Shown: in pieces, positions 4,451 through 59,700 of the stretch
Layout: every line of letters begins with the position of its first letter
Numbering within the stretch: the stretch's first letter is position 1
Assembly: GCA_002840305.1 (NCBI GenBank)
Contig: PHAI01000003.1
Location: forward strand, 6,908-70,907
Source of the DNA: Candidatus Falkowbacteria bacterium HGW-Falkowbacteria-1
GTDB taxonomy: Bacteria > Patescibacteriota > Patescibacteriia > Patescibacteriales > UBA12465
Length of the DNA: 64,000 bases
Reading direction: 5' to 3'
Program-made: the position numbers and the translations under genes
The notes under the pieces: generated by a model
Databases searched by the model: none
What the model saw: only the letters and a program-made list of their open reading frames with translations
Told to the model about the DNA's origin: nothing

Positions 4451-6745
4451 CTACCTATAAATCAATATATTATGAAAACCAACGGCTATGGCCAACTCCG
4501 CATTAAATGAGATATCGATAGCTGACCATTGAGAAGCTTTGGCGGAAGAATCTACTGTCCACGAATCACCGAAGTCATCGGATACAAAGACTTCGCCATG
4601 AGACAATGCCATCATCTTTGATCCATCACCAGAAACAGAACAATAATACAACTCATTAATGTCCAAAGCATCGGAAGTGGTCCAACTCTCGCCGTAATCA
4701 TTTGAAATTTTAAGAGAGGTTCCAGCAGTAACCAAAATTCTTTGTCCATTATCAGACATCCCCACCCTGGCCATATTGGTATTTATTTGTCCGGCCGAAG
4801 TTTTAGCTTCCCAGGTTTGACCAAAGTCATTTGATATATAAACATAATCCCATCTAGCAACCGTTACCAGCGTTTGTCCGTTGGATGAAGACGCTATAGA
4901 AAACCACTCTCTTGAACCAACATCGGAATTTTCTGTCCAGTTTTGCCCATAGTCGGAAGAGGTATAAATATATCCGTTATAAACAACAGCCGCCAACTTA
5001 CTGCCATCAGCCGAAGAAGACACAGAGTACCAATTTCTTATCCCGGAAGAACTTTGTTCTGTCCAAGTTTGGCCTGAATCTGAAGACGTATAAATATAAC
5101 CACCTTCAACCACGGCTGATAAATAAGTTCCATCATCGGAAGAGCTTATGCCACGCCAATTTCTAGAACCAGCCGAAAATCTTTGAATCCAGGTTTCGCC
5201 ATAATCCGATGAAGTATAAATATATCCATTATAAACAGACGCCACTAATTTTTGCCCACTGCCAGAGGAAGAGGCAGTAAGCCAGGCTTTTCCGCCCACA
5301 TCCAATTTTTCTGACCAAGACTGACCAGCATCAGCGGAAACATTAATATATCCAGCGGTAGAAAAAATTTTTTGTCCATCATCAGAAAAGGCCACGCTAT
5401 TCCAGGCTCTAGTCCCGGTTGAAGTTTGAGCTGTCCAGGTTTGTCCATAATCGGAAGAAGTATAGGCATAATTATTATAAACCACAGCCACCATTCTTTG
5501 TCCATCATCAGAACAATCAACCGATCGCCAGGCTCTTGAAGATGCTCTCTGCGTCCAACTTCCACCAAAGTCATTTGAGACATAAATATATCCAGTAGAG
5601 GCCACTGCTACCAGTATTTGCCCGTTAGCCGAGGAGGCTATTGATCTCCAACCCCTGGATCCAGCCGAAACTCTTTCTGTCCAGTTTTGACCATAATCCG
5701 AAGAAGTATATATATAACCATAATTTTCAACAGCTGCTAAATTTTGTCCATCGGATGAAGAAGCTACTGAAAACCAAACCCTAGCACCAGAAGAAATTTG
5801 TTCAGTCCATGTCTGACCGTAGTCAGAAGATGTGTAGAGATAACCACCATTATAATCATTTTGATCAGCGGCCACCAGTCTCTGCCCATCGGATGAAGAA
5901 GCGACGGCGTACCAAAATCTTTTTCCAGCAGAAGTTTGTGCCGTCCAAGTTTGACCTGAATCAGAAGAAGTATGAATATAGCCACCACTATCAGTACCAT
6001 TATCAACCACGGCCAATCTCTGACCATCGGCCGAGGAAACAATTGAATACCAATAACCAAAGCCAATGGAACTATTTTCTGTCCAAGTTTGACCAGAATC
6101 AAAAGACCTATAAATATACCCACCACTAGGAGCGGCATACACTTTTGTACCGTCAGATGATGAGTTTATTGAACTCCAACCAAAATATGGCCAAGCCGGT
6201 CCGGACACATCTGAGCTAGCGACAATCCTCCAAGATTTTTCCTCTTCCTCGGCTTGATTCTCTTGATTACTATCAAAAGCAATTATTCCTCCGGGGGTCA
6301 TTTGTTTTGCTCCTTCTGGCATGTCTGATATTTGTTTGCCTGTACAGAAGTCTATGGTGTAACTAGCTCCACTATTTTGGGGTGTGTAGGTGTAAGTATT
6401 AGAAGCGGACAAACAGTCTCCGTCGGCAGGAGATGGAGCAATAGGAATGTTGTACATAAATACTTCTCCCGTAGAAGAAGATACTATAGAACCGCTTTCC
6501 CACTCTTCTGTCGTTGGATATCTACCATTTTCATTATAAAATAATTCTAAAGCGGTTTGAGTTTGTTTCATATCAGCTAAGCGCTTGCTATCGCGAGCTC
6601 TAGATCTGGCTTGTTGAAGGGCTACCACAGCTAAAGTAGCAAGAATTCCTATAATGGCTATTACTACTAATAATTCGATTAACGTAAAGCCACGTAAAAA
6701 CGCTTCGCGTTCACGTGGCAAGGCTTTTTGTTTTATTTTAAACAT
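4451..6745 (-). CDS. Type IV pilin-like protein (prepilin N-terminal methylation motif) fused to ~13 BNR/Asp-box repeats (beta-propeller)
   Basis: The leader ends ...[28 protein letters not shown]. It is followed by 13 copies of a ~43-aa unit containing SxDxGxTW (for example [14 protein letters not shown]). Confidence 0.8.
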
Positions 6746-24826: not shown

Positions 24827-24850
24827 GCCACACATACGTGGTTTTTTGTT
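24827..24850 (+). terminator. Weak rho-independent terminator after the KH-protein gene
   Basis: A 5-bp stem (gccac/gtggt with one G-T pair) and a 6-nt loop are followed by tttttgttt. Confidence 0.45.
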
Positions 24851-24860
24851 TAGGTGCGAG

Positions 24861-25261
24861 TTTTACCATCTCGACCGAATAATGAGGAGCAAAGAGACAC
24901 CTCCTCTTTGTCACCTCCACCGAATGAGGAGCGCGGCAATATATCTCTTTGTCACCTCCACCGAATGAGGATCGCGGCAATATATCTCTTTGTCACCTCG
25001 ACCGAACGAGGAGCAAAGAGACGCCTCCCTTTTGTCACCTCGACCGAACGAGGAGCAAGGCGACGAGTAAGTGGAGAGGTCTAAAACATTGAGAAATAGA
25101 TCTCTCCGCTCGCAAGTTGCTCTGCAACTTTCTCGGTCGAGATGACAAAAAAGAAAAGCTCGGTCGAGATGACAAAAAAGAAAAGCTCGGTCGAGATGAC
25201 AAAAAATAAAAGCTCGGTCGAGATGACAAGGCCAACAAACTTTCTCAGTCGAAATAACAAA
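24861..25261. repeat. ~400-bp compound palindromic array of TTTGTCA(T/C)CTCGACCGA-head repeats between the KH-protein gene and trmD
   Basis: Five forward heads start at about 24861, 24906, 24947, 24988 and 25029, including 41-bp tandem units. Five reverse heads lie at 25132-25261, including 27-bp tandem units gaaaagctcggtcgagatgacaaaaaa. They surround a central ~120-bp full element at 25029-25148. Confidence 0.9.
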
Positions 25262-26130: not shown

Positions 26131-26171
26131 TTTTGTCATCTCAACCAAGTGGAGCAAACGTAGAGATCTAT
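26131..26171 (+). repeat. Short unit of the TTTGTCAT-head repeat family
   Basis: ttttgtcatctcaaccaagtggagcaaacgtagagatctat shares the head and the gagagatct tail with the other copies. Confidence 0.8.
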
Positions 26172-27536: not shown

Positions 27537-27571
27537 AGCCCTTTGATTAATTTCAAAGGGCTCTTTTTTTA
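27537..27571 (+). terminator. Rho-independent terminator after the lipoprotein gene
   Basis: The 10-bp stem agccctttga / tcaaagggct has a 6-nt loop and is followed by a ctttttttt run. Confidence 0.85.
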
Positions 27572-27580
27572 TCCAATCCT

Positions 27581-27638
27581 CTTTGTCATCTCGACTGAGA
27601 AAGCTGTGAAGCAGCTTACGAATGGAGAGATCTATTTT
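27581..27638 (+). repeat. Half-element of the TTTGTCAT-head repeat family
   Basis: ctttgtcatctcgactgagaaagctgtgaagcagcttacgaatggagagatctatttt abuts the stop codon of the DHH phosphoesterase gene. Confidence 0.85.
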
Positions 27639-28689
27639 ACTGAATTTTAAATCTATTGTTCTCTTTTACAATTTTACCCTCAACCATAAACCCGGCCGCC
27701 TTTTTATGCCCTCCTCCGCCAAAATAAGAGGCTAAACAAGCAACATCTATGTCCTTGTCGCTAGATCCAACCCTTAAGCTTCCCTTTATTTTGCCGGGCT
27801 CTTCTTCTCTTAACAAAAGAACAACATTTGCCTCTGACAAACTGCTCATAAAAGCTACTATGTCCCCAAAAATATCAGAACTCAGATCTTGAGAAATGTT
27901 TCTGAATAAATTCAAGTCTTCATAGCTTAAAACCGAAAAAGCTATATTATATTTTTTATTTATCTTTAAATTATTAAGAGCTGTTCCCCAAATTTTCATT
28001 TCTAAAAAATTTTTATTTCTCCAGGTACTATTTAATAATTTCGGAAATTGCGCACCCAGGCTCATCATCTCAGAAGATATCTCCAAGGTTTTTTCATTCA
28101 CCGAAGAATATAAAAAATTACCAGTATCGGTTAATATTCCGGCCAAAATACAATTGGCCATATTACGATTTATTTCTAATTTGTTTTCTTTCAAAAAATA
28201 ATACAACAATTCAGTGGCAGAAGAAAGTTGAGTTTTTATTTCTATATTAGCATAAGTTTTAACTGGCAAATGATGATCTATTTCAACAATAAAAGTTTCC
28301 AGCATCAAATTTGCAGCAATGTGAATATTTTCGCTTATAAAAGTTCTCTCTATTGATCCACAATCAACTATAATAACTAAATCAAAATATTTTAAAAAAT
28401 CTTCTTTCGCTTTTATTCCTCCATTAAATTCATCCCCAACTCTTCCCAGTAGTTCGTCTTTGTCCGAAATTACATCCTCAAAATTAGGTAAATAATGATA
28501 ATCGTCGCCTTTCTTTTCAGCAAAGGCTATATATTTTTTATTATAAGTTTTTAAAACCTCTATCAAAACGCCCAAAGAGGAGATGGCGTCAACGTCAGGA
28601 TTGATATGTGATACTAAAAGAATTCTATCTGATGATAAAATTCTTTGCCAAACTTTATTAAATTTTTTTTTATCTAAATTTGAAATCAT
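27637..28689 (-). CDS. DHH/DHHA1 family phosphoesterase (NrnA-like oligoribonuclease/pAp phosphatase)
   Basis: LLVSHINPDVDAISSLG, VDCGS, IDHH and the C-terminal GGGGHKKAAGF are present. Confidence 0.85.
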   Translation of the reverse strand: MISNLDKKKFNKVWQRILSSDRILLVSHINPDVDAISSLGVLIEVLKTYNKKYIAFAEKKGDDYHYLPNFEDVISDKDELLGRVGDEFNGGIKAKEDFLKYFDLVIIVDCGSIERTFISENIHIAANLMLETFIVEIDHHLPVKTYANIEIKTQLSSATELLYYFLKENKLEINRNMANCILAGILTDTGNFLYSSVNEKTLEISSEMMSLGAQFPKLLNSTWRNKNFLEMKIWGTALNNLKINKKYNIAFSVLSYEDLNLFRNISQDLSSDIFGDIVAFMSSLSEANVVLLLREEEPGKIKGSLRVGSSDKDIDVACLASYFGGGGHKKAAGFMVEGKIVKENNRFKIQ

Positions 28690-29124: not shown

Positions 29125-30471
29125 TTAACGAGAAATATAAATATATCCCCCAGACTGAACTATGAAAATTTTATTGTTACTTATAAAGCTAGCATTCCAA
29201 TAGGCCAAACCTAGATCCGTCTGTTCCTCCCAATTATTGCCATAATCACTAGAAAAATAAAAATACGCCCCTACCCCCGTGCCAAAAGTATCTCTGATGG
29301 CTAATATCTTTTTTCCGTCCGGAGACATTGCGACCCCCCTCCAACTATAAGCATTGTTCAAAGAAACAACATTACTCCAAGTTAACCCAGAGTCAGTGGA
29401 CAATAAAACATATGGACCATTTGATTGAGTGACAATAATTCTTGTCCCATCAAGCGAACAAGCCATATTCCGTCCATTCAAAAGACCGGTCTTAATCGCT
29501 GTCCAGGTTTCACCAAAATCATAAGAAGCGTAAATCGTAGAACCATTAGAGGCAAAAAGTTTTGATCCATCAAAAGAAGAGCATATTGATTGCCAGTTTC
29601 TTAATCCAGATGAAATTCTTTCTATCCATGTCACACCATAATCATTAGAAGTATAAATATAACTACCATTGGTTCCCGCAGCTACTAATTTTGAACCATC
29701 AGATGAAGACGCCAAAGCAGTCCACCATCTCAACCCGGCAGAAGTTTGTTCTGTCCACGTCGCACCAGAGTCAGGCGACGTATAAATATATCCGCTAATA
29801 CCAACTATGGCCGCTAATTTGGTGCCATCAGAAGAAGAGGCGACTCTCGTCCAATTTTTTGAACCAACCGAAGTTTGCGCCGTCCATGTCACTCCAGAAT
29901 CAGAAGAGGTATAAATATAACCAGTTGTAACGGAGGCCAATATTTTTGTACCATCAGCTGAAGAGGCTATTGAATTCCAATTTCTTGTAGTATCATTAAA
30001 CACTTCGTCCCACGATATTTTCCCGCAATCAATAGGTGATATTCCTCCAGGAGTAAGACATTTATCACCACTGCTCAAATCAGCCACCTGCTTACCTAAA
30101 CAAAATTTAATATTATAACTCGTATTATCATCAGTGGGAATATAAACATAATCGGCACCGCTAGAACAATCTCCGTCAGTTATATTTGGCGCAGAAGGAA
30201 TCTCATACATAAATACTACTCCGGTAGTGGAAGAGCCTATTATATTTTCATTCCACTCGTCAGTCGTGGGGTATCTGCTATTTTCATTAAAAAACAACTC
30301 TAAAGCTGTATGTATTTGCTTCATATCGGCTACTCTCTTGCTGTCTCTGGCCCGAGATCTGGCTTGTTGTAAAGCCACTACGGCAAGTGTTGCCAATATT
30401 CCAATAATAGCTATCACTACTAGAAGTTCTATGAGAGTAAAGGCTTTACGGGTTGTTATCTTTTTAAACAT
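29125..30471 (-). CDS. Type IV pilin-like protein fused to a 6-7-bladed BNR/Asp-box propeller (paralog of 4451..6745)
   Basis: The N-terminus ...[39 protein letters not shown] is nearly identical to that of the 764-aa paralog. Six SxDxGxTW-type repeats follow. Confidence 0.8.
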
Positions 30472-30505: not shown

Positions 30506-30656
30506 CCTTTGTCATCTCGGCTGAGCTTCTCCCCTTTGTCATCTCGACCGAGAAAGTTGCAGAGCAACTTGTGAGCAGAGAGACCTATTTCTCAATGTTT
30601 TAGACCTCTCCGCTCACTTGTCGCCTTGCTCCTTATTCGGTCGAGGTGACACAAAG
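30506..30656. mobile_element. MITE-like ~123-bp element (30534-30656) plus an adjacent solo head (30506-30532) of the TTTGTCAT-head family
   Basis: The terminal inverted repeats are ctttgtcatctcgaccga ... tcggtcgaggtgacacaaag. The body is ~90 percent identical to the reverse complement of 25029-25148. It has no coding capacity and sits between the infB stop and the pilin start. Confidence 0.75.
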
Positions 30657-30668
30657 AGCTAACAAAAA

Positions 30669-48951: not shown

Positions 48952-49404
48952 CTAAAAGTCTACTTCATCCGATACGAGCTTATCGCTATCTTCGCCTTTA
49001 TACCTTCCCTTAGTATCAACCACTAAGGACAACTTGGACAATTTAGCTTGATTTAAGTATTTCTCTTGGGTTACTATATTTTCATATTTAAACTCCTTTT
49101 CTTCTTTGTTTTCAACGCCAGAGTCTTTATGATTCCAAACTCTAAGCCCCGGTTTCTTAAAAGTCTGCACTAAATTTAAAATAAAATAATGAAAGGGCCT
49201 CCCGTTAATCTTTAAAAAGGCGAATGTTCCAGAAACTGCAAAAATAAAAACACTAACTAAAACAAAACCAGTAAAATCAAGAGTCTTAAAAGCAAGAAAC
49301 ATGAAAAGAGCCGCTCCCAAAAAAATAAGAAACTGTCTAGCGGTAATAGGCCCGATAATTTTGGGCTCAACATCTATGAATTGTGGGACGGTAAATTGTT
49401 GCAT
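48952..49404 (-). CDS. PrgI-family (VirB3-like) small membrane protein
   Basis: MQQFTVPQFIDVEPKIIGPITARQFLIFLGAALFMFLAF is followed by a second TM helix. This is the pattern recalled for PrgI-family proteins next to VirB4. Confidence 0.65.
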   Translation of the reverse strand: MQQFTVPQFIDVEPKIIGPITARQFLIFLGAALFMFLAFKTLDFTGFVLVSVFIFAVSGTFAFLKINGRPFHYFILNLVQTFKKPGLRVWNHKDSGVENKEEKEFKYENIVTQEKYLNQAKLSKLSLVVDTKGRYKGEDSDKLVSDEVDF

Positions 49405-49409
49405 AAAAA

Positions 49410-50996
49410 CTAAAATCTTAAAGTCTTGTTGAACTCAAGTATAGCATCTAACTCTTCTTTGCTCAAATAATCTTTGCCATAACTTTTGAGCTCTGAGATT
49501 ATTTGGTCTACTCCAACACCCCTGTCTCCAGCATTTAAAAATATTTTTAAATAAAGCTTGTGGATTGAACTTTGACGCCAAGCTTTTATTCCTTCTAACA
49601 TCTTACCATAATCAAGACCCTCTAATGTTTTAATCTTTTCTCCAATCTTCGCCAAAGCCTCCTTGGGTTCCTTCGCCAAACGTCTAAAGTTGACTAAATC
49701 CAAATAACGGATTTCATCAATTGGCCCCATTATCTTCATTTTTTTGACATCTGACATTTTTATTTTACCGGTAGCAGAGTCTATATCAGCTATCTTTTTT
49801 GGTATATTCAAGGGTATAAACACGCCTTCTGCTTTTTTATTTTTTTCATCAACTACAATTTTGTCATTCACTATTTCTTTAGCAACGACAGGAACAACGG
49901 GAACGACAGGAACAGCGGGAACTTCAGCAATAATAGGTGGTTTCGTAATCACGGGAGCTTCAACCGCCGGTATCTCTTTTATTTCTTCTTGCTTTAAATC
50001 TTTTTCTACAGCGGGTTCGCTTTTTGGCATATTGGAAACAAGAACTTCTTTTTTATTCGAAATTACGGCCGGATGTAACGGAGGCAAAATATTTTCGGGC
50101 TCAGAAGCCTCTATCATCTTTAATTCGTTTTTGCCATAAGAGACTCCATGGCTCAATCTATTTATTTTGTCTAAAACATCTCTGTCTACGCTTGAACTGC
50201 TTTTCACTTCTTCATATTCCTCTTTTTGCAAAGAAGCGGCTATCATAAAAACATTGCTAATCATCTGATCGGCCAAAGAGAATCCGCCCATCTCTTTTGA
50301 TTTGGAAAAAATTTTTCTTATTTCTATTTTATCTTTAAGTCCTCTTAGATATTTTATAAGCAAATCTAAAAATTGTTTGCTTTTATCATCTTCGTTAAAC
50401 TTTAAATTTAAAATTTTTATTATTTCATTAGCTTGATTTTTTACCTTGTCTACATGATCATCCTTTAAATAGTTGCCCAAGATTTCCTGCTCTTTTATAT
50501 AAGGTTCACTGTTTAAATTGTCCACGTCCTCTCTAATCTCTCCTGCTTTGTCATCTCGACCAAGCAAGCCATGCTTCTCCTCCTTGTCATCTCGACCAAG
50601 CAAGCCATGCTTCTCCTCCTTGTCATCTCGACCAAGCAAGCCATGCTTCTCCTCCTTGTCATCTCGACCAAGCAAGCTCTGCTTGCGAGTGGAGAGATCT
50701 ATTTCACTTTTATCGATTTTAAAACCTAAATAATCAGCTATTTTAGAAAAAATTTTGTTTTTTAAATCTTTAGCTAATTGTTCTGACTTTTCTTGATTTA
50801 AATTTAATTCAGTAAAAAATATTAAGGGCAAACTTTCAATATTTATTTCTTTTATAACCACTCTCATAACAATAGAGGCTAGCTCAACGTTATATTCTTG
50901 TTCTATTTTTTCTATAGCCTTAACGGCTTCATCGCTGTCAACAGCCATCTTTATGTCGTCACTTAAGTTATTAAATTTATCCAAGTAATCAAACAT
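49410..50996 (-). CDS. Hypothetical protein of the T4SS-like operon containing an in-frame (LLGRDDKEEKHG)x3.5 repeat and a PV-rich linker
   Basis: This is a clean 528-aa ORF. The repeat is encoded by the 36-bp tandem copies of the interspersed repeat family. Confidence 0.55.
   Translation of the reverse strand: MFDYLDKFNNLSDDIKMAVDSDEAVKAIEKIEQEYNVELASIVMRVVIKEINIESLPLIFFTELNLNQEKSEQLAKDLKNKIFSKIADYLGFKIDKSEIDLSTRKQSLLGRDDKEEKHGLLGRDDKEEKHGLLGRDDKEEKHGLLGRDDKAGEIREDVDNLNSEPYIKEQEILGNYLKDDHVDKVKNQANEIIKILNLKFNEDDKSKQFLDLLIKYLRGLKDKIEIRKIFSKSKEMGGFSLADQMISNVFMIAASLQKEEYEEVKSSSSVDRDVLDKINRLSHGVSYGKNELKMIEASEPENILPPLHPAVISNKKEVLVSNMPKSEPAVEKDLKQEEIKEIPAVEAPVITKPPIIAEVPAVPVVPVVPVVAKEIVNDKIVVDEKNKKAEGVFIPLNIPKKIADIDSATGKIKMSDVKKMKIMGPIDEIRYLDLVNFRRLAKEPKEALAKIGEKIKTLEGLDYGKMLEGIKAWRQSSIHKLYLKIFLNAGDRGVGVDQIISELKSYGKDYLSKEELDAILEFNKTLRF
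50546..50707. repeat. Three 36-bp tandem units plus one full unit of the TTTGTCAT-head repeat family, located inside a CDS and in frame
   Basis: The units cttgtcatctcgaccaagcaagccatgcttctcctc lie at 50546, 50582 and 50618. The terminal unit ...caagctctgcttgcgagtggagagatctatttcac spans 50654-50707. On the minus strand they translate as EIDLSTRKQSLLGRDDK(EEKHGLLGRDDK)n. Confidence 0.9.
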
Positions 50997-51011
50997 AATA
51001 TAGTAATTATT

Positions 51012-52193
51012 TTATTTTGTTTTTTTAAGTTTTTTAATTTCGTTTTCGATGGCTTTTCTCTCTAAGTTTTTACCAGAATATTTACCAAGCATTAATTCTA
51101 ATTCTTTTATTTTTTCAATATCTGTCGTATTATTTTCAAACTTTTTTGTCTGTTCTGTTTTTATATTTTCATATGAAATTTTTAAACTACCGCCAACTAA
51201 CGATTCGCTTGGCCTTATCTCCTTCTCCTTGTCTTTTTGCTTTAAGGCTTCTTGGGAAAAAGAGGCCTTTCTAAGCTTCGCCATGCTATCATCTGAATAA
51301 ACGCTATCTTTATCTACAGGAATAATTTCCCATTCTTCCATCGGAATATTTTTCATTGAATCTGGGAAAAAAATCAAGTTTCTATAAAGTCTTAAGGTTT
51401 TTCTGACTAATTTTCTCTCGTCATTATCAATACTCAAACAATTAATTGAACTGGTTAAATATTTGGCCAAAATTATATTATTAAAAAGATCACTACCGTT
51501 TTCTTTTACAAAACTTTTTACCCAATTAGCAATAGTTGGGTCTTCTTTTTTACCTTCTATAATCAATAAATTTTTCGTTAATTTTTCTTGATTTATCAAA
51601 AAAGCTCTGGTAAATTTACTCAAAGAATCACTTTTATTTATAAGTAAATAGAGTAGAGATCCGTTTACTTTCTGAGAAGCCGAAGGATCATTGTTTTCTA
51701 AAATTTCTACCAAATTTTTCTCCAAAAAATAGGCAGACATTCTTTCTTCTTCATTTTCATCAAAATCATTTTCAAATCCTTCTAAAAAATCACCAAGATT
51801 ATCAAAATTTTCATCATCAATCAGGTCGTTAAAATCATCAATATACTTTTTGTAAACATCTACCTGCCCTTTGTATTTCTTTATTTCTTCTTCTACCTTA
51901 AAATCTATAAATGGACCAACAGGTAAAAATAATTTTCCCAAGAAATCGCAAACAAAATTGTTTGAATCGTTTTTATTAATAATTTTGTCAGAAATATTCT
52001 TGTATAATTTTTCGATCTGGAAATCAAAAATAAAAAAATCAATTAAAATATCATGGACTAAATCTAACTCAAGATTATATTTATCCGCTAACTCTTCTAT
52101 AATTTTAGAATTTATATCTGAAGAAAAATAAATATTTACCTCTTCTGGTAAGGATTTTAGTTTCTGCAAAAATTGTAAACTTTTATTTTCCAT
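51012..52193 (-). CDS. Hypothetical protein of the T4SS-like operon
   Basis: This is a clean 393-aa ORF. Its N-terminal ~70 aa weakly resemble the N-terminus of the 528-aa neighbour (L-[SP]-[DE]-[DE]...SD...YN[LV]EL). Confidence 0.55.
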   Translation of the reverse strand: MENKSLQFLQKLKSLPEEVNIYFSSDINSKIIEELADKYNLELDLVHDILIDFFIFDFQIEKLYKNISDKIINKNDSNNFVCDFLGKLFLPVGPFIDFKVEEEIKKYKGQVDVYKKYIDDFNDLIDDENFDNLGDFLEGFENDFDENEEERMSAYFLEKNLVEILENNDPSASQKVNGSLLYLLINKSDSLSKFTRAFLINQEKLTKNLLIIEGKKEDPTIANWVKSFVKENGSDLFNNIILAKYLTSSINCLSIDNDERKLVRKTLRLYRNLIFFPDSMKNIPMEEWEIIPVDKDSVYSDDSMAKLRKASFSQEALKQKDKEKEIRPSESLVGGSLKISYENIKTEQTKKFENNTTDIEKIKELELMLGKYSGKNLERKAIENEIKKLKKTK

Positions 52194-52233
52194 ATTTATT
52201 AAAAATATAATCTTTTATCACAAACAATCAAAA

Positions 52234-54966
52234 TTAACTCTTAATACTCTGGGCGATTGAATCCAACATTGCCTTGTGAGCATTACTTGTATTGAACTGC
52301 ATATTTTTTGTAATCATATTCATCTCCGCCCTAAACTCCTCATTTTTGCCAGCGTTAACCAAGTCTCTATACTTGGATAAACTACCTGATTCTTGAAAAA
52401 ATTGTTTAAGACTTTTTAACCCATCGATTGAAGAAGTCAAATCTTGCATTTGATTAAGATTGGCTTTCTCTAAATACTGTGCCTTCTCGTTTGTTCCCTC
52501 CAAAGGAGAAAGGTCATTGTTGATAGCTGCTAATTTAGTGCGAGCATTAGGAGTCCCGGACGCTTTCAAAGCTACTTTTAGCTGTGCTCTCTTTTCTGTT
52601 GTTTGTCCATCATATACACCCTTAAAATTCTTGTCAGTCATCGTTTTTGACAGTTCCGGCATAATCAAATTAAGAGATTCTTGATCATCAATATTGGCTA
52701 TTTTTATAGTACCATTAACAACTCCACTGACAATTTTCTTCTGAACTTTTTCGTGTTTGTCTTTGGTGTCTTGGCTCCGACTATCACCCCCCGCCGTAGA
52801 ATGAAGCTCGGTAAATGATTGGGTTAAATTTTGATAATTATTATTTAAAACTCCGTCTAATTGGTTTTTTACCTTTCCGTCATGTTTATAGGAATCTCTA
52901 ATTTCACTACTTTTGACACTAGCCTCTTCTTGAGACAGCTCCCCTCTTTCCATCAAAGTCATGGTAGCAGCTGTTCTTTCATGCCCAGTCAAAGAATAAT
53001 CATTCATTTTCTTTCTAATATCTTCTTCTCGTTCGTCTTTCATTTTTTCCTTATATTTTCCAATTTGAGAACTATTATGATTGGATGCAATATCCAAAGC
53101 GCCCTCTCCGGCATGTTTAAGCTTGTGTCTGCCCGTCGCACCTGCAACACCACCAATAATGGCTCCTGGGATTCCTCCGCCTAAAAGAGCCCCTGTCATA
53201 GCGCCCGCAGCAACAGTGCCCCATTTTCCAACCTGTTCTGATCTTTTTCTTTTTTTAGCTATTTCCTTTTGACCTAACTCTATCTCTTCACTCTTAGATT
53301 TAATCTCTTTAGTTTTGGCCATCACCGCCCCTTCTCTCTCAGACTTAAATTTATCTTTTCCTGTTCTAACTTCATCAATATTAGACACCTTTTCGCCAGT
53401 TACCTCGCCATAAGTATTAATAATGGACTTTTCCTTTTCTTGTATCTTTTGGGAATACTCCTTATCCGTTCTCTTGGCATCAGCTTGTAATAAAGATATT
53501 TGTTTAGGGTCCTTTTCTCTCTCGAGCTTTCGCTCAAATTCTTTTCTATTTTCTTGTTGTTTGGTCTTTAGGCCGTCCACAACTTTTATTTCACCATCGA
53601 TGTCAAACTTCGCCAATTCTTCCCTTCTAGCACTTAGAGCCTCTTTCTCTCCCACTTTATTTTTTATCACATCTTCCTTTCTCTTAATTTGTTTGTCAGA
53701 CAAGCCACCTATTGCTTTCAACTGATTACCGACAAATCCTCCGGCTTGTTGAAAAGGCTTGGCTACGCCTTTCTTGAGCTTACCTTCCATTTTCATCAAT
53801 GAACCAGCGTCTCTCTGAGCTAACTCAGATCTTTTAGTCTCTTTCTGTTGTTTATAGGCTTTAATAGCATTCTCAGCTCTTTCAACACCACTGGCTCTTT
53901 TTGCTCCTTTTATAGCGCCGTCTCCCATTTTTTGTAAACTGGCCATACCTTTCCCCGCTATTTTTCCAGCCGCTCCACCCATTTCTTGAGCAATCATAAG
54001 ACCACCTAAAAGCATGCCTATGGAAATAATAAATTTGGTTATATTCTCAGAACTTCCAGCTTCAGTTATGGTCGCGGAATCAGAACCGCCAGCGACCTCT
54101 TCTCCACCTGGATTGTCTCTTTTCATTTTAACAATATCACTACTTCCCTCAACACCCCCCAAAGACGCAAAAGACAGCCAAATAAAAAAGGCCAAAACTG
54201 GACCGACTATTAAATTTTTAGAAAAATCAGACCACCATCTCTGAGAATAGGACTGTCCTTGAGGAAATGAGGCTAATAAATAGGCCAAAGGGGACAAAAC
54301 AACATAAATCCAAATCATTATAATCCTCATGGCCAACATGACAAGCATTGTCAAAATAACTACCACCGAAATTATAGAAAATATTAAAGCTAAAATTATT
54401 GAACCTAAAATTGTCCAGCCGGTTACATCCTCTGAGCTACCTTGATCGAAGCTAAGAATTTTTGTTACTCCAAGCATTTCCGTTAAGTTTCCGCCAGCCA
54501 TATCCTTAAAAGCATTTACGAAGGTAAGCATTACTATCTGAGCAACGTCTATGAAGGCACCACAAATTAATTTAGAAAAATTAATTAAAACCGCCATCAA
54601 AAGCAATTTCGGCAACCAAGTTTTTAAATTATATTGTTCTACTCTTAAAATAGTTGCAAAAGCAATAATCAACAGAATCAAAATAAAAAACATATTGCAA
54701 AGATCCCTGACTAAGGCCCAACCAATCTTCACCGCGTTTGAATCTATGAAGCTATTGTATTGAGCAATACCAATCAACACATTCATTAACACTAAAAGTA
54801 TTTTCCCTAATATCCAAATAATTGGATAAAGCACCCAGCCCAAGACAGTAGCAATGGTTTCGCCGACTCCTGCATGAACCAAATTGGGAAATAAAAAAAT
54901 AATCCCAACTAAAAGAATGGGAGCTAAACTTATAAATATTTTTTTATTTTTTGTAAAAAATTTCAT
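52234..54966 (-). CDS. VirB6/TrbL-like polytopic membrane protein with a ~600-aa charged coiled-coil C-terminal extension
   Basis: The start was reassigned to Met28 (MKFFTKNKKIFISLAPILLVGIIFLFPNLVHA, a signal-like segment). It has about 6-7 TM helices, and the LVRDLCNMFFILILLIIAF region is typical of TrbL/VirB6-type proteins. Confidence 0.6.
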   Translation of the reverse strand: MKFFTKNKKIFISLAPILLVGIIFLFPNLVHAGVGETIATVLGWVLYPIIWILGKILLVLMNVLIGIAQYNSFIDSNAVKIGWALVRDLCNMFFILILLIIAFATILRVEQYNLKTWLPKLLLMAVLINFSKLICGAFIDVAQIVMLTFVNAFKDMAGGNLTEMLGVTKILSFDQGSSEDVTGWTILGSIILALIFSIISVVVILTMLVMLAMRIIMIWIYVVLSPLAYLLASFPQGQSYSQRWWSDFSKNLIVGPVLAFFIWLSFASLGGVEGSSDIVKMKRDNPGGEEVAGGSDSATITEAGSSENITKFIISIGMLLGGLMIAQEMGGAAGKIAGKGMASLQKMGDGAIKGAKRASGVERAENAIKAYKQQKETKRSELAQRDAGSLMKMEGKLKKGVAKPFQQAGGFVGNQLKAIGGLSDKQIKRKEDVIKNKVGEKEALSARREELAKFDIDGEIKVVDGLKTKQQENRKEFERKLEREKDPKQISLLQADAKRTDKEYSQKIQEKEKSIINTYGEVTGEKVSNIDEVRTGKDKFKSEREGAVMAKTKEIKSKSEEIELGQKEIAKKRKRSEQVGKWGTVAAGAMTGALLGGGIPGAIIGGVAGATGRHKLKHAGEGALDIASNHNSSQIGKYKEKMKDEREEDIRKKMNDYSLTGHERTAATMTLMERGELSQEEASVKSSEIRDSYKHDGKVKNQLDGVLNNNYQNLTQSFTELHSTAGGDSRSQDTKDKHEKVQKKIVSGVVNGTIKIANIDDQESLNLIMPELSKTMTDKNFKGVYDGQTTEKRAQLKVALKASGTPNARTKLAAINNDLSPLEGTNEKAQYLEKANLNQMQDLTSSIDGLKSLKQFFQESGSLSKYRDLVNAGKNEEFRAEMNMITKNMQFNTSNAHKAMLDSIAQSIKS

Positions 54967-55003
54967 TTGAAAATAATGATATTTAGTAAAAGCTCTTTGC
55001 GAA

Positions 55004-55993
55004 TTAGAACCAACTTGAAATATAATCCCAGGCAAGATATGCCGCAAGAAAGAACGATATTGGTGGAGTTAACAAAAAAACCGCAAAAGCTATGATTATC
55101 AGAAAAAAGTGCAAAAAACAACAACATCCAGTAGCGCCCGTCTCCACTATGCCCAACTTATTCCCCATTTCTTCAGCAATCTTCGGCGATGTTTGCTTCA
55201 ACTCTTTCGGCGCCCATTCATGCCCTAATTTACAAAAAAACTTTGGGGAAATCATTCCTAAAAAAACATGAATATAAACCCAAAAAGCTGATAAAGTAAA
55301 AGTCGGTACTATATTTAACCAAGCGTCTTTTAAAAATTGGTCAAAAAATTCTTTCATGTCCGGTTTCGGAGATTCATCTTTCTTCAGTACGCTCGCATCC
55401 TTAGTCTTTAATTCTTTTTTGCTATTTTTATCTTTCTTTTTATCTTGACCCAATCTTTCGGCCATCTTGTTTTCATCTGTATTATCTTTATTGCTGTCAC
55501 CACCGCTTTGGTTATTATTCCCATTACTTCCATTTTCCGAATTGTCACCACCCTTCTTTCTGTTGTGACCGCTATCAACCGGCAAGGTTTGTTGTGGTTT
55601 TATTGGGGCACGCCCCTCATTTCTAATTGCTTGTTTATCTCTATTTAAATCATCGGCCAAACCAAGCTCTTTTTTTATATCTCTCGGTTTTTCAGTCTTA
55701 TTATTAATATCTGGAATTTCTTTATTTTCAAAATTCTGTTGATTCCCTGGATTTTGATGACTTCCTGGTTTTTCGAAATTCTTTTGGCTCACCGAGCTAC
55801 CCATGTCATTTCCACTAACGCTCTTATTTAAATCTTGCATTACAGAATTTTTTGAACTCATTTTATCGGAGTTCAATTGCTCTTTTAAGTCCTCTTCTGT
55901 AAACTTTTTTTTGGCCTGTTCTTCGATGTCCCTTTCTAATGTACTCGCCATTTCTTCTTTATTTTGAACTTGTTCTTTGATTTCTCCGGCCAT
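55004..55993 (-). CDS. Hypothetical membrane protein: disordered N/G/K/D-rich N-terminus and 3 C-terminal TM helices with a CCC motif
   Basis: The start was reassigned to Met11 (MAGEIKEQ). It is the first gene of the operon after metG. Confidence 0.5.
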   Translation of the reverse strand: MAGEIKEQVQNKEEMASTLERDIEEQAKKKFTEEDLKEQLNSDKMSSKNSVMQDLNKSVSGNDMGSSVSQKNFEKPGSHQNPGNQQNFENKEIPDINNKTEKPRDIKKELGLADDLNRDKQAIRNEGRAPIKPQQTLPVDSGHNRKKGGDNSENGSNGNNNQSGGDSNKDNTDENKMAERLGQDKKKDKNSKKELKTKDASVLKKDESPKPDMKEFFDQFLKDAWLNIVPTFTLSAFWVYIHVFLGMISPKFFCKLGHEWAPKELKQTSPKIAEEMGNKLGIVETGATGCCCFLHFFLIIIAFAVFLLTPPISFFLAAYLAWDYISSWF

Positions 55994-56083
55994 AAAATAA
56001 AGATAATAATAAAACAATGGCAAAACAAAAACTGTTTATTCTCTGCCTATATTATACAATAAAAAAAATATTTTGCCAACATT

Positions 56084-57956: not shown

Positions 57957-58365
57957 CTTTGTCATTCCCGCGAGCCACGTTCTACGTGGCGAAAGCGGGA
58001 ATCCATTCAAAAAAACATGAAAAACCATAATTACTATATATACATATTAGCAAGTAAGAAAAACGGCACGCTATACATAGGGGTGACTAATGGTTTATTT
58101 AAAAGAACACTTCAACACAAACTAAAAGAAAACAAGAAAGGCTTTACCTCAAAATATAACGTTAATAAATTGGTTTATTATGAAAATTACAAGTATATCA
58201 AAGGCGCCATAGCGAGAGAAAAATGTTTAAAAAAATGGAAAAGAAAATGGAAATTAGAATTAATAGAAAAAGAAAATCCAACTTGGCTAGATCTGTTTGA
58301 AGACATGAGTTAGGTCTGACTTCCCGCTTTCGCCACGTAGAACGTGGCTCGCGGGAATGACAAAG
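57957..58365 (+). mobile_element. 409-bp unit: 45-bp perfect terminal inverted repeats flanking a GIY-YIG nuclease gene
   Basis: 57957-58001 (ctttgtcattcccgcgagccacgttctacgtggcgaaagcgggaa) is the exact reverse complement of 58321-58365. Each arm is itself a nested hairpin, with outer stem ttcccgc/gcgggaa and inner stem gccacg/cgtggc. The ctttgtcat heads point outward. Confidence 0.8.
58017..58313 (+). CDS. GIY-YIG nuclease family protein (UPF0213/COG2827 type, 98 aa)
   Basis: The sequence is YYIYILASKKNGTLYIGVTNGLFKRTLQHK...KLVYYENY....AIAREKCLKKWKRKWK. The start was moved to Met24 of the track ORF, whose 5' extension merely translates the left inverted repeat. Confidence 0.9.
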   Translation: MKNHNYYIYILASKKNGTLYIGVTNGLFKRTLQHKLKENKKGFTSKYNVNKLVYYENYKYIKGAIAREKCLKKWKRKWKLELIEKENPTWLDLFEDMS

Positions 58366-58373
58366 GGGTCTGG

Positions 58374-58401
58374 TCCTCGTTTTCACGAGGATGACAAAAA
58401 A
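58374..58401 (-). repeat. Mini-unit of the repeat family (TTTTTTGTCAT head plus a 6-bp hairpin)
   Basis: On the plus strand tcctcgttttcacgaggatgacaaaaaa contains the stem tcctcg/cgagga. The head is in reverse orientation, directly outside the right TIR. Confidence 0.65.
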
Positions 58402-58402
58402 T

Positions 58403-58440
58403 GAGAAAAATAAAAAACCCGTTGACTGATCAACGGGTTA
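58403..58440 (-). terminator. Rho-independent terminator after the T9SS-CTD protein gene
   Basis: The 10-bp stem aacccgttga / tcaacgggtt has a 4-nt loop. A T-rich run follows on the minus strand. Confidence 0.85.
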
Positions 58441-58461
58441 TTTTGAAAGCATGGGCGCTTT

Positions 58462-59700
58462 CTATTTTTTTATAAATTTTTTCGAAGCAATACCCTCGGA
58501 TGTGTTTACTTTTAATATATACATCCCAGTAGGCAAAGCAGAAATATCTACCTCTGAATTATCTTCAAAAAAATTAGAGGACATAATCTGGGCGCCAATT
58601 ACATTGTAAATAGCTACAGATTTTTGACCACGAACAGGAAAATTAATCGATAAACGATCAACGGCTGGATTAGGATAAACTGCCATTTTTGAACTAATAT
58701 CAATTTGATCAACGGATGTTAATCCGGTGAGTTCAAAAAGAGCTCCACCAAGATTGCAGAATAAAGCTCTGTTGCTGTATTTATCGTAATATCCACTTAG
58801 CACCTTGGGCTCATTCCAATCCATGTAAAGGACATCAGATTCTCCAGTACTAACTTTTATATGCTTAACTCCACTCTCTCCGTAAATAAAAACATTTTCA
58901 TTGTTTGTACAAATTATACCAGAATTAAACATCCAATGATCTTCGCTAGTGTAAGAATAAATCTTAGTCATCTGAGAAGAAGAGTCGTCCCAGCGATAAA
59001 CATCACCTCCATAAGTTAAAATGAAAAAAATGTTTTTATCGTTAGACCATATTCTCGTAACAGATCCTCTATCTAAGTCAAAGGAATATAAATCTACCAG
59101 CTCGCTTCCATTATAACGAAGAAGCTTGTTTTCGGACAGAACGTCTTGAGACACAGCGTTTTCCGATAAAATAAGCACATTATTTTCACTTTTAACATAC
59201 ATGTCCATAAAGGACACGTCTTGTCTCTCGGCAATTTTCGCACCACTACTTGCGCCATCCCAAAGATACAAATGAGCTTTATTGTCGTCGTTTGTTCTTT
59301 TATGGGTACAAACATAAATCTTATTTTCCGCTAAAACAAAACTTTTAGCAACAAAAGTCATTGCAGTAGCAAAAAAATCAAAATTAGTAATGGTATTATT
59401 CCAAACATAACCTTTCGCGCTCGTGTGATGAGCAACAAAGGCCGTACCGTCAGCCTTTTTTATTCCATGTATGCGACCGGTGCCTTGAGAAATTGGTTGA
59501 TTAATATAATGCCAAGTAGCACCATCAAAATAAATTGGGCCATTGCTCATGGTTGAAGCCCAAATTTTTCCATCCAATAAAAACAAATTATTAAACCCAG
59601 CATAATCTTGGTTATGGCTAATCATTTCTAGACCAAAATTTTGACCAAAAACACTAAAGCCAAATAGAATGCTAAACAAAAAAGATACTAGTTTTTTCAT
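58462..59700 (-). CDS. Secreted protein with a T9SS-type (Por) C-terminal sorting domain
   Basis: The signal peptide ends ..GFSVFG/QNF. The last ~75 aa, VYPNPAVDRLSINF...VAIYNVIGAQI...ISALPTGMYILKVNTSEGIASKKFIKK, match the recalled type A T9SS CTD pattern. A strong AGGAGG SD is present. Confidence 0.8.
   Translation of the reverse strand: MKKLVSFLFSILFGFSVFGQNFGLEMISHNQDYAGFNNLFLLDGKIWASTMSNGPIYFDGATWHYINQPISQGTGRIHGIKKADGTAFVAHHTSAKGYVWNNTITNFDFFATAMTFVAKSFVLAENKIYVCTHKRTNDDNKAHLYLWDGASSGAKIAERQDVSFMDMYVKSENNVLILSENAVSQDVLSENKLLRYNGSELVDLYSFDLDRGSVTRIWSNDKNIFFILTYGGDVYRWDDSSSQMTKIYSYTSEDHWMFNSGIICTNNENVFIYGESGVKHIKVSTGESDVLYMDWNEPKVLSGYYDKYSNRALFCNLGGALFELTGLTSVDQIDISSKMAVYPNPAVDRLSINFPVRGQKSVAIYNVIGAQIMSSNFFEDNSEVDISALPTGMYILKVNTSEGIASKKFIKK

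Follow-up and report, generated by a model that had tools for sequence, protein, structure and literature searches.

A 64-kb stretch of DNA from a Falkowbacteria genome (hereafter the window) contains a small GIY-YIG nuclease gene placed between two inverted arms, and this arrangement raises the question of what the gene and its arms represent, and whether the nuclease is the partner of further repeats that carry the same head elsewhere in the window. The earlier note on this DNA had proposed such a partnership, in the manner of REP elements and RAYT enzymes or of MITEs and an autonomous element.

Comparison is possible with the Ssn family of single-domain GIY-YIG nucleases (~94 aa, CDD cd10448; Chenal et al. 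2025, Nat Commun 16:2388, PMC11893778). The Ssn enzymes of N. meningitidis, N. elongata, N. wadsworthii and Wolbachia bind a hairpin repeat solely as single-stranded DNA and cut a few nucleotides upstream of this repeat, while SsnA was reported neither to cut duplex DNA nor to bind RNA (PMC11893778). The target repeat, termed NTS (CGTCATTCCCGCGMAVGCGGGAATCYRG), has been generalised as Ssn-related motifs (SRM), which are present near 71% of Ssn homologues and on both sides in 42% (PMC11893778). Within the repeat, cutting depends most on the three bases (GTC) located 5' of the palindrome, and binding on the C that adjoins it on the 3' side; the identity of the loop is dispensable and loop extensions are tolerated, but SsnA is inactive on an altered stem sequence even where pairing is kept, and mutation of Y6, Y17 or E64 abolished its cleavage activity (PMC11893778). 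In N. meningitidis, SRM-bearing DNA transforms less because of Ssn, this being the sole role that has been shown experimentally (PMC11893778). The distribution of the family over bacterial phyla has already been reported, and an analogy with IS and REP/RAYT systems was drawn, as a hypothesis, in the Discussion of the same paper (PMC11893778); our literature search retrieved no later paper that settles this analogy for Ssn.

The cassette and its arms

The cassette and the hairpin that adjoins it comprise the following features:

57957..58001, + strand: left arm, SRM/NTS-type hairpin repeat with its head on the + strand, cTTTGTC-ATTCCCGC-[GAGCCACGTTCTACGTGGCGAAA]-GCGGGAAT-CC
58017..58313, + strand: ssn gene, intact ORF of 98 aa, single-domain GIY-YIG nuclease of the Ssn family by homology
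58321..58365, - strand: right arm, the 45 nt of the left arm again, with the head on the - strand
58370..58398, - strand: small canonical SRM hairpin, TTTGTCA-TCCTCGT-GAAA-ACGAGGA-CCAG, adjoining the right arm

The earlier description of a 98-aa GIY-YIG ORF between exact reverse-complement 45-bp arms, each a nested hairpin with a head at its outer end, was borne out in every particular. The arms (57957-58001 and 58321-58365) are 100% complementary with 319 nt between them, and about 3e-18 such arm pairs would be expected by chance in the 64-kb window. Both fold as nested hairpins, with an outer stem ATTCCCGC/GCGGGAAT and an inner stem GCCACGT/ACGTGGC (-15.8 and -15.5 kcal/mol as single-stranded DNA; z-scores -4.9 and -4.5, respectively), and the head CTTTGTCAT forms the outer end of either arm. 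The loop of the left arm measures 23 nt and forms its own 7-bp hairpin inside a canonical NTS stem. Hairpins with the ATTCCCGC stem have two copies only in the 64-kb window.

Read by eye, the NTS core GTC-ATTCCCGC...GCGGGAAT-C (CGTCATTCCCGCG..CGCGGGAATC) is present in the arms. When the arms are examined as oriented hairpins (5' GTC, ATTCCCGCG-type palindrome, 3' C), the left arm conforms fully while the right arm is without the 3' C: GCGGGAA is followed there by GTC rather than TCC, so that the stem lacks its outermost A-T pair and the palindrome its adjoining 3' C. The right arm may be a poor Ssn site because it is without the 3' C that is most critical for SsnA binding.

Applied strictly, the published SRM search pattern gave a single match in the 64-kb window, at 58370-58396 (0.04 expected from shuffles). 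The hairpin at 58370-58398 folds at -7.1 kcal/mol (z -3.5), and the intrinsic terminator of the neighbouring Por_Secre_tail gene stands directly beyond it. The strict pattern, which allows loops of up to 5 nt, matches neither 45-nt arm, their loop being 23 nt; upon relaxation of the loop limit from 5 to 30 nt, the left arm also matches (57960-58006), while the right arm fails at its 3' flank only. Within 500 bp of the gene, SRM are consequently found on the 3' side only with the published pattern, and at the 5' arm too with the 30-nt loop limit.

No target-site duplication was found outside the arms, the flanks (...tattgcctcta on the left, gggtctggtcc... on the right) containing no direct repeat. 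The arms are not followed by a T-run, and an Rfam scan of the window at gathering threshold identified four tRNAs only and nothing on the arms. Locus L003, considered as a strain with a 28-nt deletion, was rejected, the difference being a run of N.

The encoded nuclease

Comparison of the 98-aa protein with Pfam identified the GIY-YIG family PF01541 (E 1.8e-13, residues 5-80) and no other Pfam family, in keeping with the single-domain make-up and the length (roughly 90-150 aa) of Ssn proteins. A 94-aa N. gonorrhoeae orthologue (L005 1489-1773, from N. gonorrhoeae chromosomes mislabelled as plasmids in PLSDB) was employed as a stand-in for meningococcal SsnA; this ORF possesses Y6, Y17 and E64 as reported for SsnA and has canonical NTS copies around it. 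In the BLASTP comparison, the window protein is 54% identical to this orthologue over 90 of its 94 residues (92% coverage, E 2e-34), where E < 1e-10 and a query cover of >=75% are asked of an SsnA homologue, and its residues Y9, Y20 and E68 align with Y6, Y17 and E64 of SsnA, respectively. An alignment of 15 sequences revealed Y9, Y20, R30, H34, E68 and N87 to be invariant.

The closest relatives of the window nuclease, and likewise those of the neighbouring MetRS, are all from Patescibacteria. Searches of PADLOC and PHROGs with the 98-aa protein returned no match, leaving membership of a known defence or phage family unsupported, and no NCBIfam family model scored above threshold, the group I intron endonuclease model TIGR01453 reaching 16.7 bits against a cut-off of 56. 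Among solved structures, a sequence search retrieved no relative of the protein at E up to 1. The exact protein was found at one locus only, which provides no evidence of multiple copies, and the 64-kb window holds one GIY-YIG gene.

Architecture in other genomes

A genome scan with one genome per species yielded 80 loci whose proteins are 54-72% identical to the window protein, and these span many phyla including Patescibacteria, Bacteroidota, Planctomycetota, Chloroflexota, Pseudomonadota, Omnitrophota and Verrucomicrobiota. Together with four others, 84 loci with the gene were analysed, 83 of them with an orientation call, and hairpins were detected as GTCW with a stem of >=6 nt that begins no more than 2 nt after it and encloses a loop no longer than 110 nt. 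Hairpin density was 4.03/kb at <=400 bp from the gene and 0.67/kb at >1 kb, a six-fold difference. The nearest hairpins were arranged heads-outward at 45 of the 83 loci, heads-inward at 2, in tandem at 14 and on one side at 18, and were absent at 4; the heads-outward arrangement thus accounts for 45/61 two-sided loci as compared to a random expectation of 25% (p = 2e-15). The earlier note had asked whether GIY-YIG genes are always flanked in this manner; relatives of the window gene usually are, with a six-fold enrichment at <=400 bp and heads-outward inverted pairs at 45/83 loci.

The commonest flanking stem is ATTCCCG(C), and CC follows the stem in 78/92 arms, which lie at a median distance from the gene match of 28 nt upstream and 20 nt downstream. 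The loop exceeds 5 nt in 18/92 arms, which are therefore missed by the published SRM pattern. The window cassette is a typical member of this family with an atypically long loop.

Stems differ between paralogues. In L038, each of three ssn paralogues has a private stem on both of its sides (ATCCCGGC, ATCCCGTA and ATTCCCGC), and the two paralogues of L042 likewise have private stems (ATTCT...AGAAT and ATTCCCGC/ATGCCCGC). The stem of the orthologous cassette in L012, ATCCCAGC/GCTGGGAT, is two compensated pairs apart from the window stem, and one hairpin copy of L012 has the same nested loop as the window arm. Such a correspondence between gene and stem agrees with the paired specificities that the Ssn paper puts forward.

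Gain and loss at the metG junction

The synteny of a giant protein, the Por_Secre_tail gene and metG is kept in relatives of the window, and the Por_Secre_tail/metG junction was compared among these:

Window, reference MetRS: cassette present, 722-nt intergenic region
L012, MetRS 78% identical to window: cassette present on the same strand, Ssn 71% identical to window
L009/L010, MetRS 88% identical to window: cassette absent, 134-nt intergenic region
L011, MetRS 78% identical to window and 92% to L012: cassette absent, 116-nt intergenic region

Among close relatives, the gene and its arms were gained or lost together as one block, and at this junction the cassette was either lost twice or gained twice at one site. 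The presence/absence polymorphism that the earlier note had envisaged was accordingly seen, both at the orthologous metG site and for repeat clusters. Between genomes at 78-92% protein identity, the intergenic DNA has diverged too far for an alignment of filled with empty sites to map the insertion boundaries to the arm ends. The MetRS protein is the same in L013 as in L012, while a 41-nt hairpin unit has 5 copies in L013 and 4 in L012.

Two further candidates were set aside: a TTTTTCTT duplication in L012, considered as a possible insertion mark, is too T-rich to trust, and Planktothrix plasmids, considered as a clean empty site, exhibit a replacement instead (ssn vs a PIN pair).

Other head repeats in the window

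The motif TTTGTCAT has 15 occurrences in the 64-kb window against 4.1 expected, and 15 was reached in 0/100 shuffles. Heads are present at every coordinate at which the earlier note had placed a head followed by a hairpin, but the recurrence of the hairpin held in part only, as several heads are truncated and without a 3' arm, the ATCTC units fold weakly and the stems differ. The units are as follows:

24861..25261, both strands: repeat cluster in the khpA/trmD intergenic region, GTCAY head as in the arms, stems different
heads at 24909, 24950, 24991 and 25033, + strand: four ACCTC-stem units in the khpA/trmD cluster
head at 25147, - strand: full ATCTC-stem unit in the khpA/trmD cluster
25174, 25201 and 25228, - strand: three truncated heads in the khpA/trmD cluster
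26131..26171, + strand: single degenerate ATCTC-stem unit, its fold no better than shuffles
27581..27640, + strand: single ATCTC-stem unit directly after an intrinsic terminator, absent in L217 and L218
30506..30657: truncated head, ATCTC-stem unit (+ strand) and ACCTC-stem unit (- strand)
50546..50707, + strand: three truncated heads (36-nt period), then a full ATCTC-stem unit

About 20 GTCAY-head units of other stem classes are present in the window. A GTC...AT-C head and tail is common to all stem classes, while the stems of the ATCTC/ACCTC repeats (ATCTCGACCGAG...GGAGAGAT, ACCTCGACCGAA... and ACCTCG...CGAGG) differ from that of the gene-flanking arms; units of the ATCTC type fold weakly (z -1 to -1.7). 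Truncated heads without a 3' arm occur at 25174, 25201, 25228, 30510 and 50549-50621, and where they stand in tandem they are always on the head side of a full unit. The ATCTC and ACCTC units of 30506..30657 form a ~120-nt heads-outward composite without an ORF, which is 90% identical (147 nt) to the composite at 25030-25176 in inverse orientation, and such ORF-less heads-outward two-hairpin composites (25030-25154 and 30535-30654) were also observed in Planktothrix.

The repeats are located between housekeeping genes (khpA/trmD, a 422-aa gene/DHH gene and a pilin-like gene/infB), and several of the repeats immediately follow terminators. An exception to the intergenic location is the array at 50546-50707, which forms an in-frame part of a 528-aa ORF on the - strand, where it encodes (GRDDKEEKHGLL)x4; orthologues of this ORF possess an unrelated linker in place of the array. 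The khpA/trmD intergenic region measures 485 nt in the window and 128 and 62 nt in the sister contigs L217 and L218, which are without the cluster. In line with the earlier proposal, under which relatives that lack the gene should also lack the repeats, the gene-less sister contigs are without them, no head of this kind being found in the 45 kb sampled from L217, L218, L009 and L011.

The repeats and the ssn gene therefore co-occur in the window lineage. This co-occurrence does not make the window gene the partner of the repeats, because there is one GIY-YIG gene in the window, SsnA loses activity on an altered stem, paralogues possess private stems, and ATCTC-type hairpins stand heads-outward around a 97-aa ssn paralogue in L090, which shares 45% identity with the window protein. 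Scanning of metagenomes for the ATCTC-type head revealed a GIY-YIG gene near 1/80 among the matches listed, at a distance of 3.6 kb; the contig of the window was not among these matches, and the count has no bearing on a partnership. The ATCTC/ACCTC repeats are SRM-like elements of other stem classes and most likely represent another Ssn specificity class, the gene of which would be located elsewhere in the genome or have been lost. The claim that the window gene serves the ATCTC/ACCTC repeats (24.8-30.7 kb and 50.5 kb) is consequently unsupported, in view of the differing stems, the private stems of paralogues and the ATCTC pair at the L090 paralogue.

Discussion

Based on the homology of the protein and the form of its flanking repeats, we conclude that the locus is very probably an Ssn/SRM pair, in which an ssn gene has its cognate hairpin repeat on both sides, this repeat being an NTS with an enlarged, self-pairing loop. 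The Ssn/SRM locus of Falkowbacteria is thus of a kind already characterised since March 2025, and the remark in the earlier note that its author was aware of no characterisation of such a system is superseded by that publication (PMC11893778). The suggestion of a small GIY-YIG nuclease as a REP/RAYT-like partner is retained in so far as Ssn is a dedicated partner of hairpin repeats, namely SRM, and is unsupported as regards the window gene and the ATCTC/ACCTC repeats.

By homology with the Neisseria and Wolbachia enzymes, the repeat would fold where DNA is made single-stranded, be it in replication, repair, DNA uptake or conjugation, whereupon the Ssn protein would bind the stem along with its flanking bases (5' GTC and 3' C) and would nick the folded strand at a distance of a few nucleotides on the 5' side of the hairpin. 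The complementary strand, duplex DNA and RNA would not be acted upon. The left arm is expected to be subject to the same activity and the right arm, without the 3' C, to be a weaker site. Since the arms are heads-outward, a cut is predicted on each strand just outside the cassette.

An Ssn/SRM pair may at the same time be a domesticated host system rather than a mobile element, in which case Ssn would restrict or trim incoming or exposed single-stranded DNA at SRM, with the hairpins acting in autoregulation or as local members of a host-maintained set. This is quite possible, if short of an even chance: restriction of single-stranded DNA is the only role experimentally shown (in natural transformation of N. 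meningitidis), and the repeats lie between housekeeping genes (khpA, trmD, rbfA, infB, metG) and directly after terminators, but such a system leaves unexplained the heads-outward bias, the per-paralogue stems on both sides, the block-wise gain and loss between close relatives, and the truncated-head arrays and in-frame array within a gene. A host role is compatible with the Ssn/SRM assignment and not exclusive of it. A selfish, gain/loss-prone cassette that seeds hairpin copies would likewise fit the data, with its movement hypothetically catalysed by Ssn itself. It is conceivable, although we consider it rather doubtful, that Ssn cassettes are true autonomous mobile elements, making up a class of transposons in which a GIY-YIG nuclease specific to single strands drives movement. 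Their non-autonomous copies and footprints would be the solo hairpins, the ORF-less two-hairpin composites and the arrays of truncated heads, and sites immediately downstream of terminator T-runs would be preferred for insertion. The preponderance of heads-outward over heads-inward pairs (45 vs 2), the paralogue-specific arms, the gain and loss of blocks and the clusters missing in sister genomes all fit such elements. The arms are perfectly identical beside a diverged gene, and identity across phyla is high, both of which speak for a selfish or gain/loss-prone cassette, while the presence of one cleavable site per strand with heads-outward arms speaks against a classical transposon, as it departs from the same-strand excision geometry of IS200/IS605.

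The strongest form of this idea, in which the GIY-YIG protein is the transposase of an autonomous transposon and all TTTGTCAT-head repeats including the ATCTC/ACCTC classes are MITE-like derivatives, appears improbable. In its favour, inverted heads-outward arms prevail in genomes of many phyla, relatives differ in whether the cassette occupies an orthologous site, ORF-less heads-outward composites exist (25030-25154, 30535-30654 and in Planktothrix), and sister genomes without the gene at this site are also without repeat clusters (0 heads in 45 kb); moreover, the GTC...ATC head and tail is common to all classes, and proteins that are 54-72% identical over many phyla suggest horizontal spread. 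Against this, the arm ends are without a target-site duplication, a single locus yielded the exact protein and the insertion boundaries are unmappable to the arm ends. The other classes have different stems, and SsnA activity is lost upon a change of stem sequence that preserves pairing; L038 and L042 exhibit paralogue-specific stems, and the ATCTC-type pair of L090 stands beside a different paralogue. Ssn, in addition, cuts one strand orientation only, and GIY-YIG enzymes are without known strand transfer. A transposase role of the gene, as implied by the autonomous-element reading of the earlier note, is therefore unsupported, there being no target-site duplication and no known case of transposition by such a system. 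To our knowledge, strand-transfer activity has not been described for any GIY-YIG enzyme.

It is very unlikely that the arms act as RNA, whether as terminators, attenuators or REP-like stabilisers of mRNA, with a nuclease as their coincidental neighbour. The hairpins are indeed stable and clusters adjoin terminators, but no T-run follows the arms, Rfam provides no match, SsnA binds the DNA form and not RNA, and the same hairpins with a strand-specific head are found beside relatives in 80 genomes with six-fold enrichment. More improbable still is a free-standing GIY-YIG homing endonuclease that cleaves both strands of an empty allele and has inverted repeats beside it only incidentally. The GIY-YIG domain, the weak sub-threshold NCBIfam match to a group I intron endonuclease (16.7 bits vs 56) and the presence/absence of the gene at one site would agree with homing; the whole protein, however, comprises 98 aa and is without a DNA-binding domain, PHROG and PADLOC matches are lacking, the closest characterised relatives leave duplex DNA uncut, and the flanking hairpins are systematically conserved.

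The assignment as an Ssn/SRM pair opens no new category, and rather adds a locus from Patescibacteria to a nuclease family that entered the literature one year ago and of which just four enzymes have been tested. About a fifth of gene-flanking hairpins (18/92) have long or nested loops and are invisible to the published search pattern. The dominance of heads-outward arms, together with the per-paralogue stems, sharpens the question of cassette movement, and the presence/absence of cassettes and repeat clusters in close relatives provides concrete loci for tests of mobility. Each new gene-hairpin pair is furthermore a candidate single-stranded-DNA cutting tool of new specificity.

Among known systems, SsnA/NTS of N. 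meningitidis (PMC11893778) is the one with which the window locus shares a single-domain GIY-YIG protein of ~95 aa (54% identity), the catalytic residues, an identical hairpin core (GTC-ATTCCCGC...GCGGGAAT-C) and the location of hairpins on both sides of the gene. It differs in that the loop is 4 nt in Neisseria and 23 nt and self-pairing in the window, and in that the window arms are a perfect 45-nt heads-outward pair, whereas the nearest gonococcal copies are heads-inward. The window member, known from sequence alone, is hosted by a Patescibacteria (Falkowbacteria) genome of roughly 0.57 Mb, and adds other stem classes, truncated-head arrays and an in-frame array nearby. With REP/RAYT systems (IS200/IS605-type Y1/HUH), the locus has in common a dedicated small nuclease gene flanked by hairpin repeats that are recognised as single-stranded DNA, the repeats being intergenic and both dispersed and clustered (BIME-like). 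The fold of the window protein, however, is GIY-YIG, which is unrelated to HUH/Y1 and is the only domain found; Ssn is not known to form a covalent intermediate or to transfer strands, and the arms are inverted with one cleavable site per strand.

MITEs and autonomous TIR transposons (e.g. Correia elements) similarly possess terminal inverted repeats around a gene or around nothing and exhibit insertion polymorphism between relatives, but the window cassette has neither a target-site duplication nor a DDE transposase, its ends are themselves hairpins, and neighbouring copies vary in orientation. Homing endonucleases of the I-TevI type share with the window gene the GIY-YIG catalytic domain and presence/absence at a site, and differ from it in that the window gene is without a DNA-binding domain, intron or phage context and its Ssn relatives leave duplex DNA uncut.

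Placement of the repeats at terminators and intergenic sites

Repeat clusters, and likewise the ssn cassette, start no more than a few bases away from the T-run that ends an intrinsic terminator, as listed here for the window and for L012, a relative with matching gene order:

Window 24829-24861: start adjacent to the T-run of an intrinsic terminator
Window 27540-27581: start adjacent to the T-run of an intrinsic terminator
Window 58398-58443: start adjacent to the T-run of an intrinsic terminator
L012 9040-9120: start adjacent to the T-run of an intrinsic terminator

In sister genomes the terminator is kept and the repeats are missing. This placement could reflect either a target preference or positions at which the repeats are merely tolerated.

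Hairpin units also build a 147-nt inverted repeat (window 25030-25176 against 30508-30654; 90% identity) that flanks a 5.3-kb block encompassing trmD, a gene for a 422-aa protein, a DHH phosphoesterase gene, rbfA and the gene of a pilin-like BNR protein. The inverted repeat represents a repeat cluster present at two intergenic sites rather than a composite transposon. The relative L218 has neither the pilin-like gene (window 29125-30471) nor an adjoining repeat cluster between rbfA and infB, and a stretch paralogous to this gene, 75% identical, lies at window 6412-6689.

Truncated units and the in-frame array

Truncated units, each made up of the head plus only the initial 12-25 nt of a hairpin, recur in tandem with a period of 23-36 nt. 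In both the Falkowbacteria window and a Planktothrix agardhii plasmid (L214), they invariably share the orientation of a full unit and are located on its head side:

Window 25159-25229, minus strand: tandem truncated units, head side of a full unit
Window 30508-30534, plus strand: truncated unit, head side of a full unit
Window 50548-50655, plus strand: tandem truncated units, head side of a full unit
L214 2191-2260 and 2860-2890: truncated units, Planktothrix agardhii plasmid

Such arrays could have been left behind by cleavage and repair immediately 5' of the hairpin.

The hairpin-repeat array at 50546-50707 lies in frame within an ORF of 528 aa (49410-50996, minus strand), in which it codes for four copies of GRDDKEEKHGLL. 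The protein belongs to a type IV secretion-like gene cluster, and its orthologues in the relatives L012 and L011 carry an unrelated linker of similar length where the array sits. Genes for PrgI-like, TraC-like and TraG/VirB4-like proteins make up part of this neighbourhood (window 48952-56000, and L001/L012).

Orientation and surroundings of the cassette

In a 661-nt contig (L004; ENA ERZ27239240 k141_169266), compared with window 57957-58555, the cassette is bordered on both sides by the window's right flank, in the order reverse complement of 58366-58555, arm, gene, arm, 58366-58427. Either a fraction of the population has the cassette inverted via the 45-nt arms, or the contig arose at the inverted repeat as a fold-back chimera or an assembly artefact.

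The synteny of the giant protein (>2,700 aa) and the Por_Secre_tail protein is conserved among relatives. Upstream of ssn, L012 (9689-9840) has four tandem 41-nt hairpin copies and the relative L013 five, a difference of exactly one unit between two assemblies that encode an identical MetRS protein.

Comparison with Planktothrix and Neisseria

Of two Planktothrix plasmids (L214, P. agardhii No.66 p1; L216, PCC7805 p1), one carries ssn together with hairpins of the ATTCT/ATCCT stem type, flanked by a restriction-modification gene of the MmeI type and by drmA, which encodes the DISARM helicase; the matching place in the other strain holds three tandem hairpin composites and a PIN-domain gene pair, without ssn. 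The SsnA orthologue used for comparison came from mislabelled PLSDB records, NZ_CP119140.1 and NZ_CP119142.1, which are two 2.17-Mb Neisseria gonorrhoeae chromosomes entered as plasmids.
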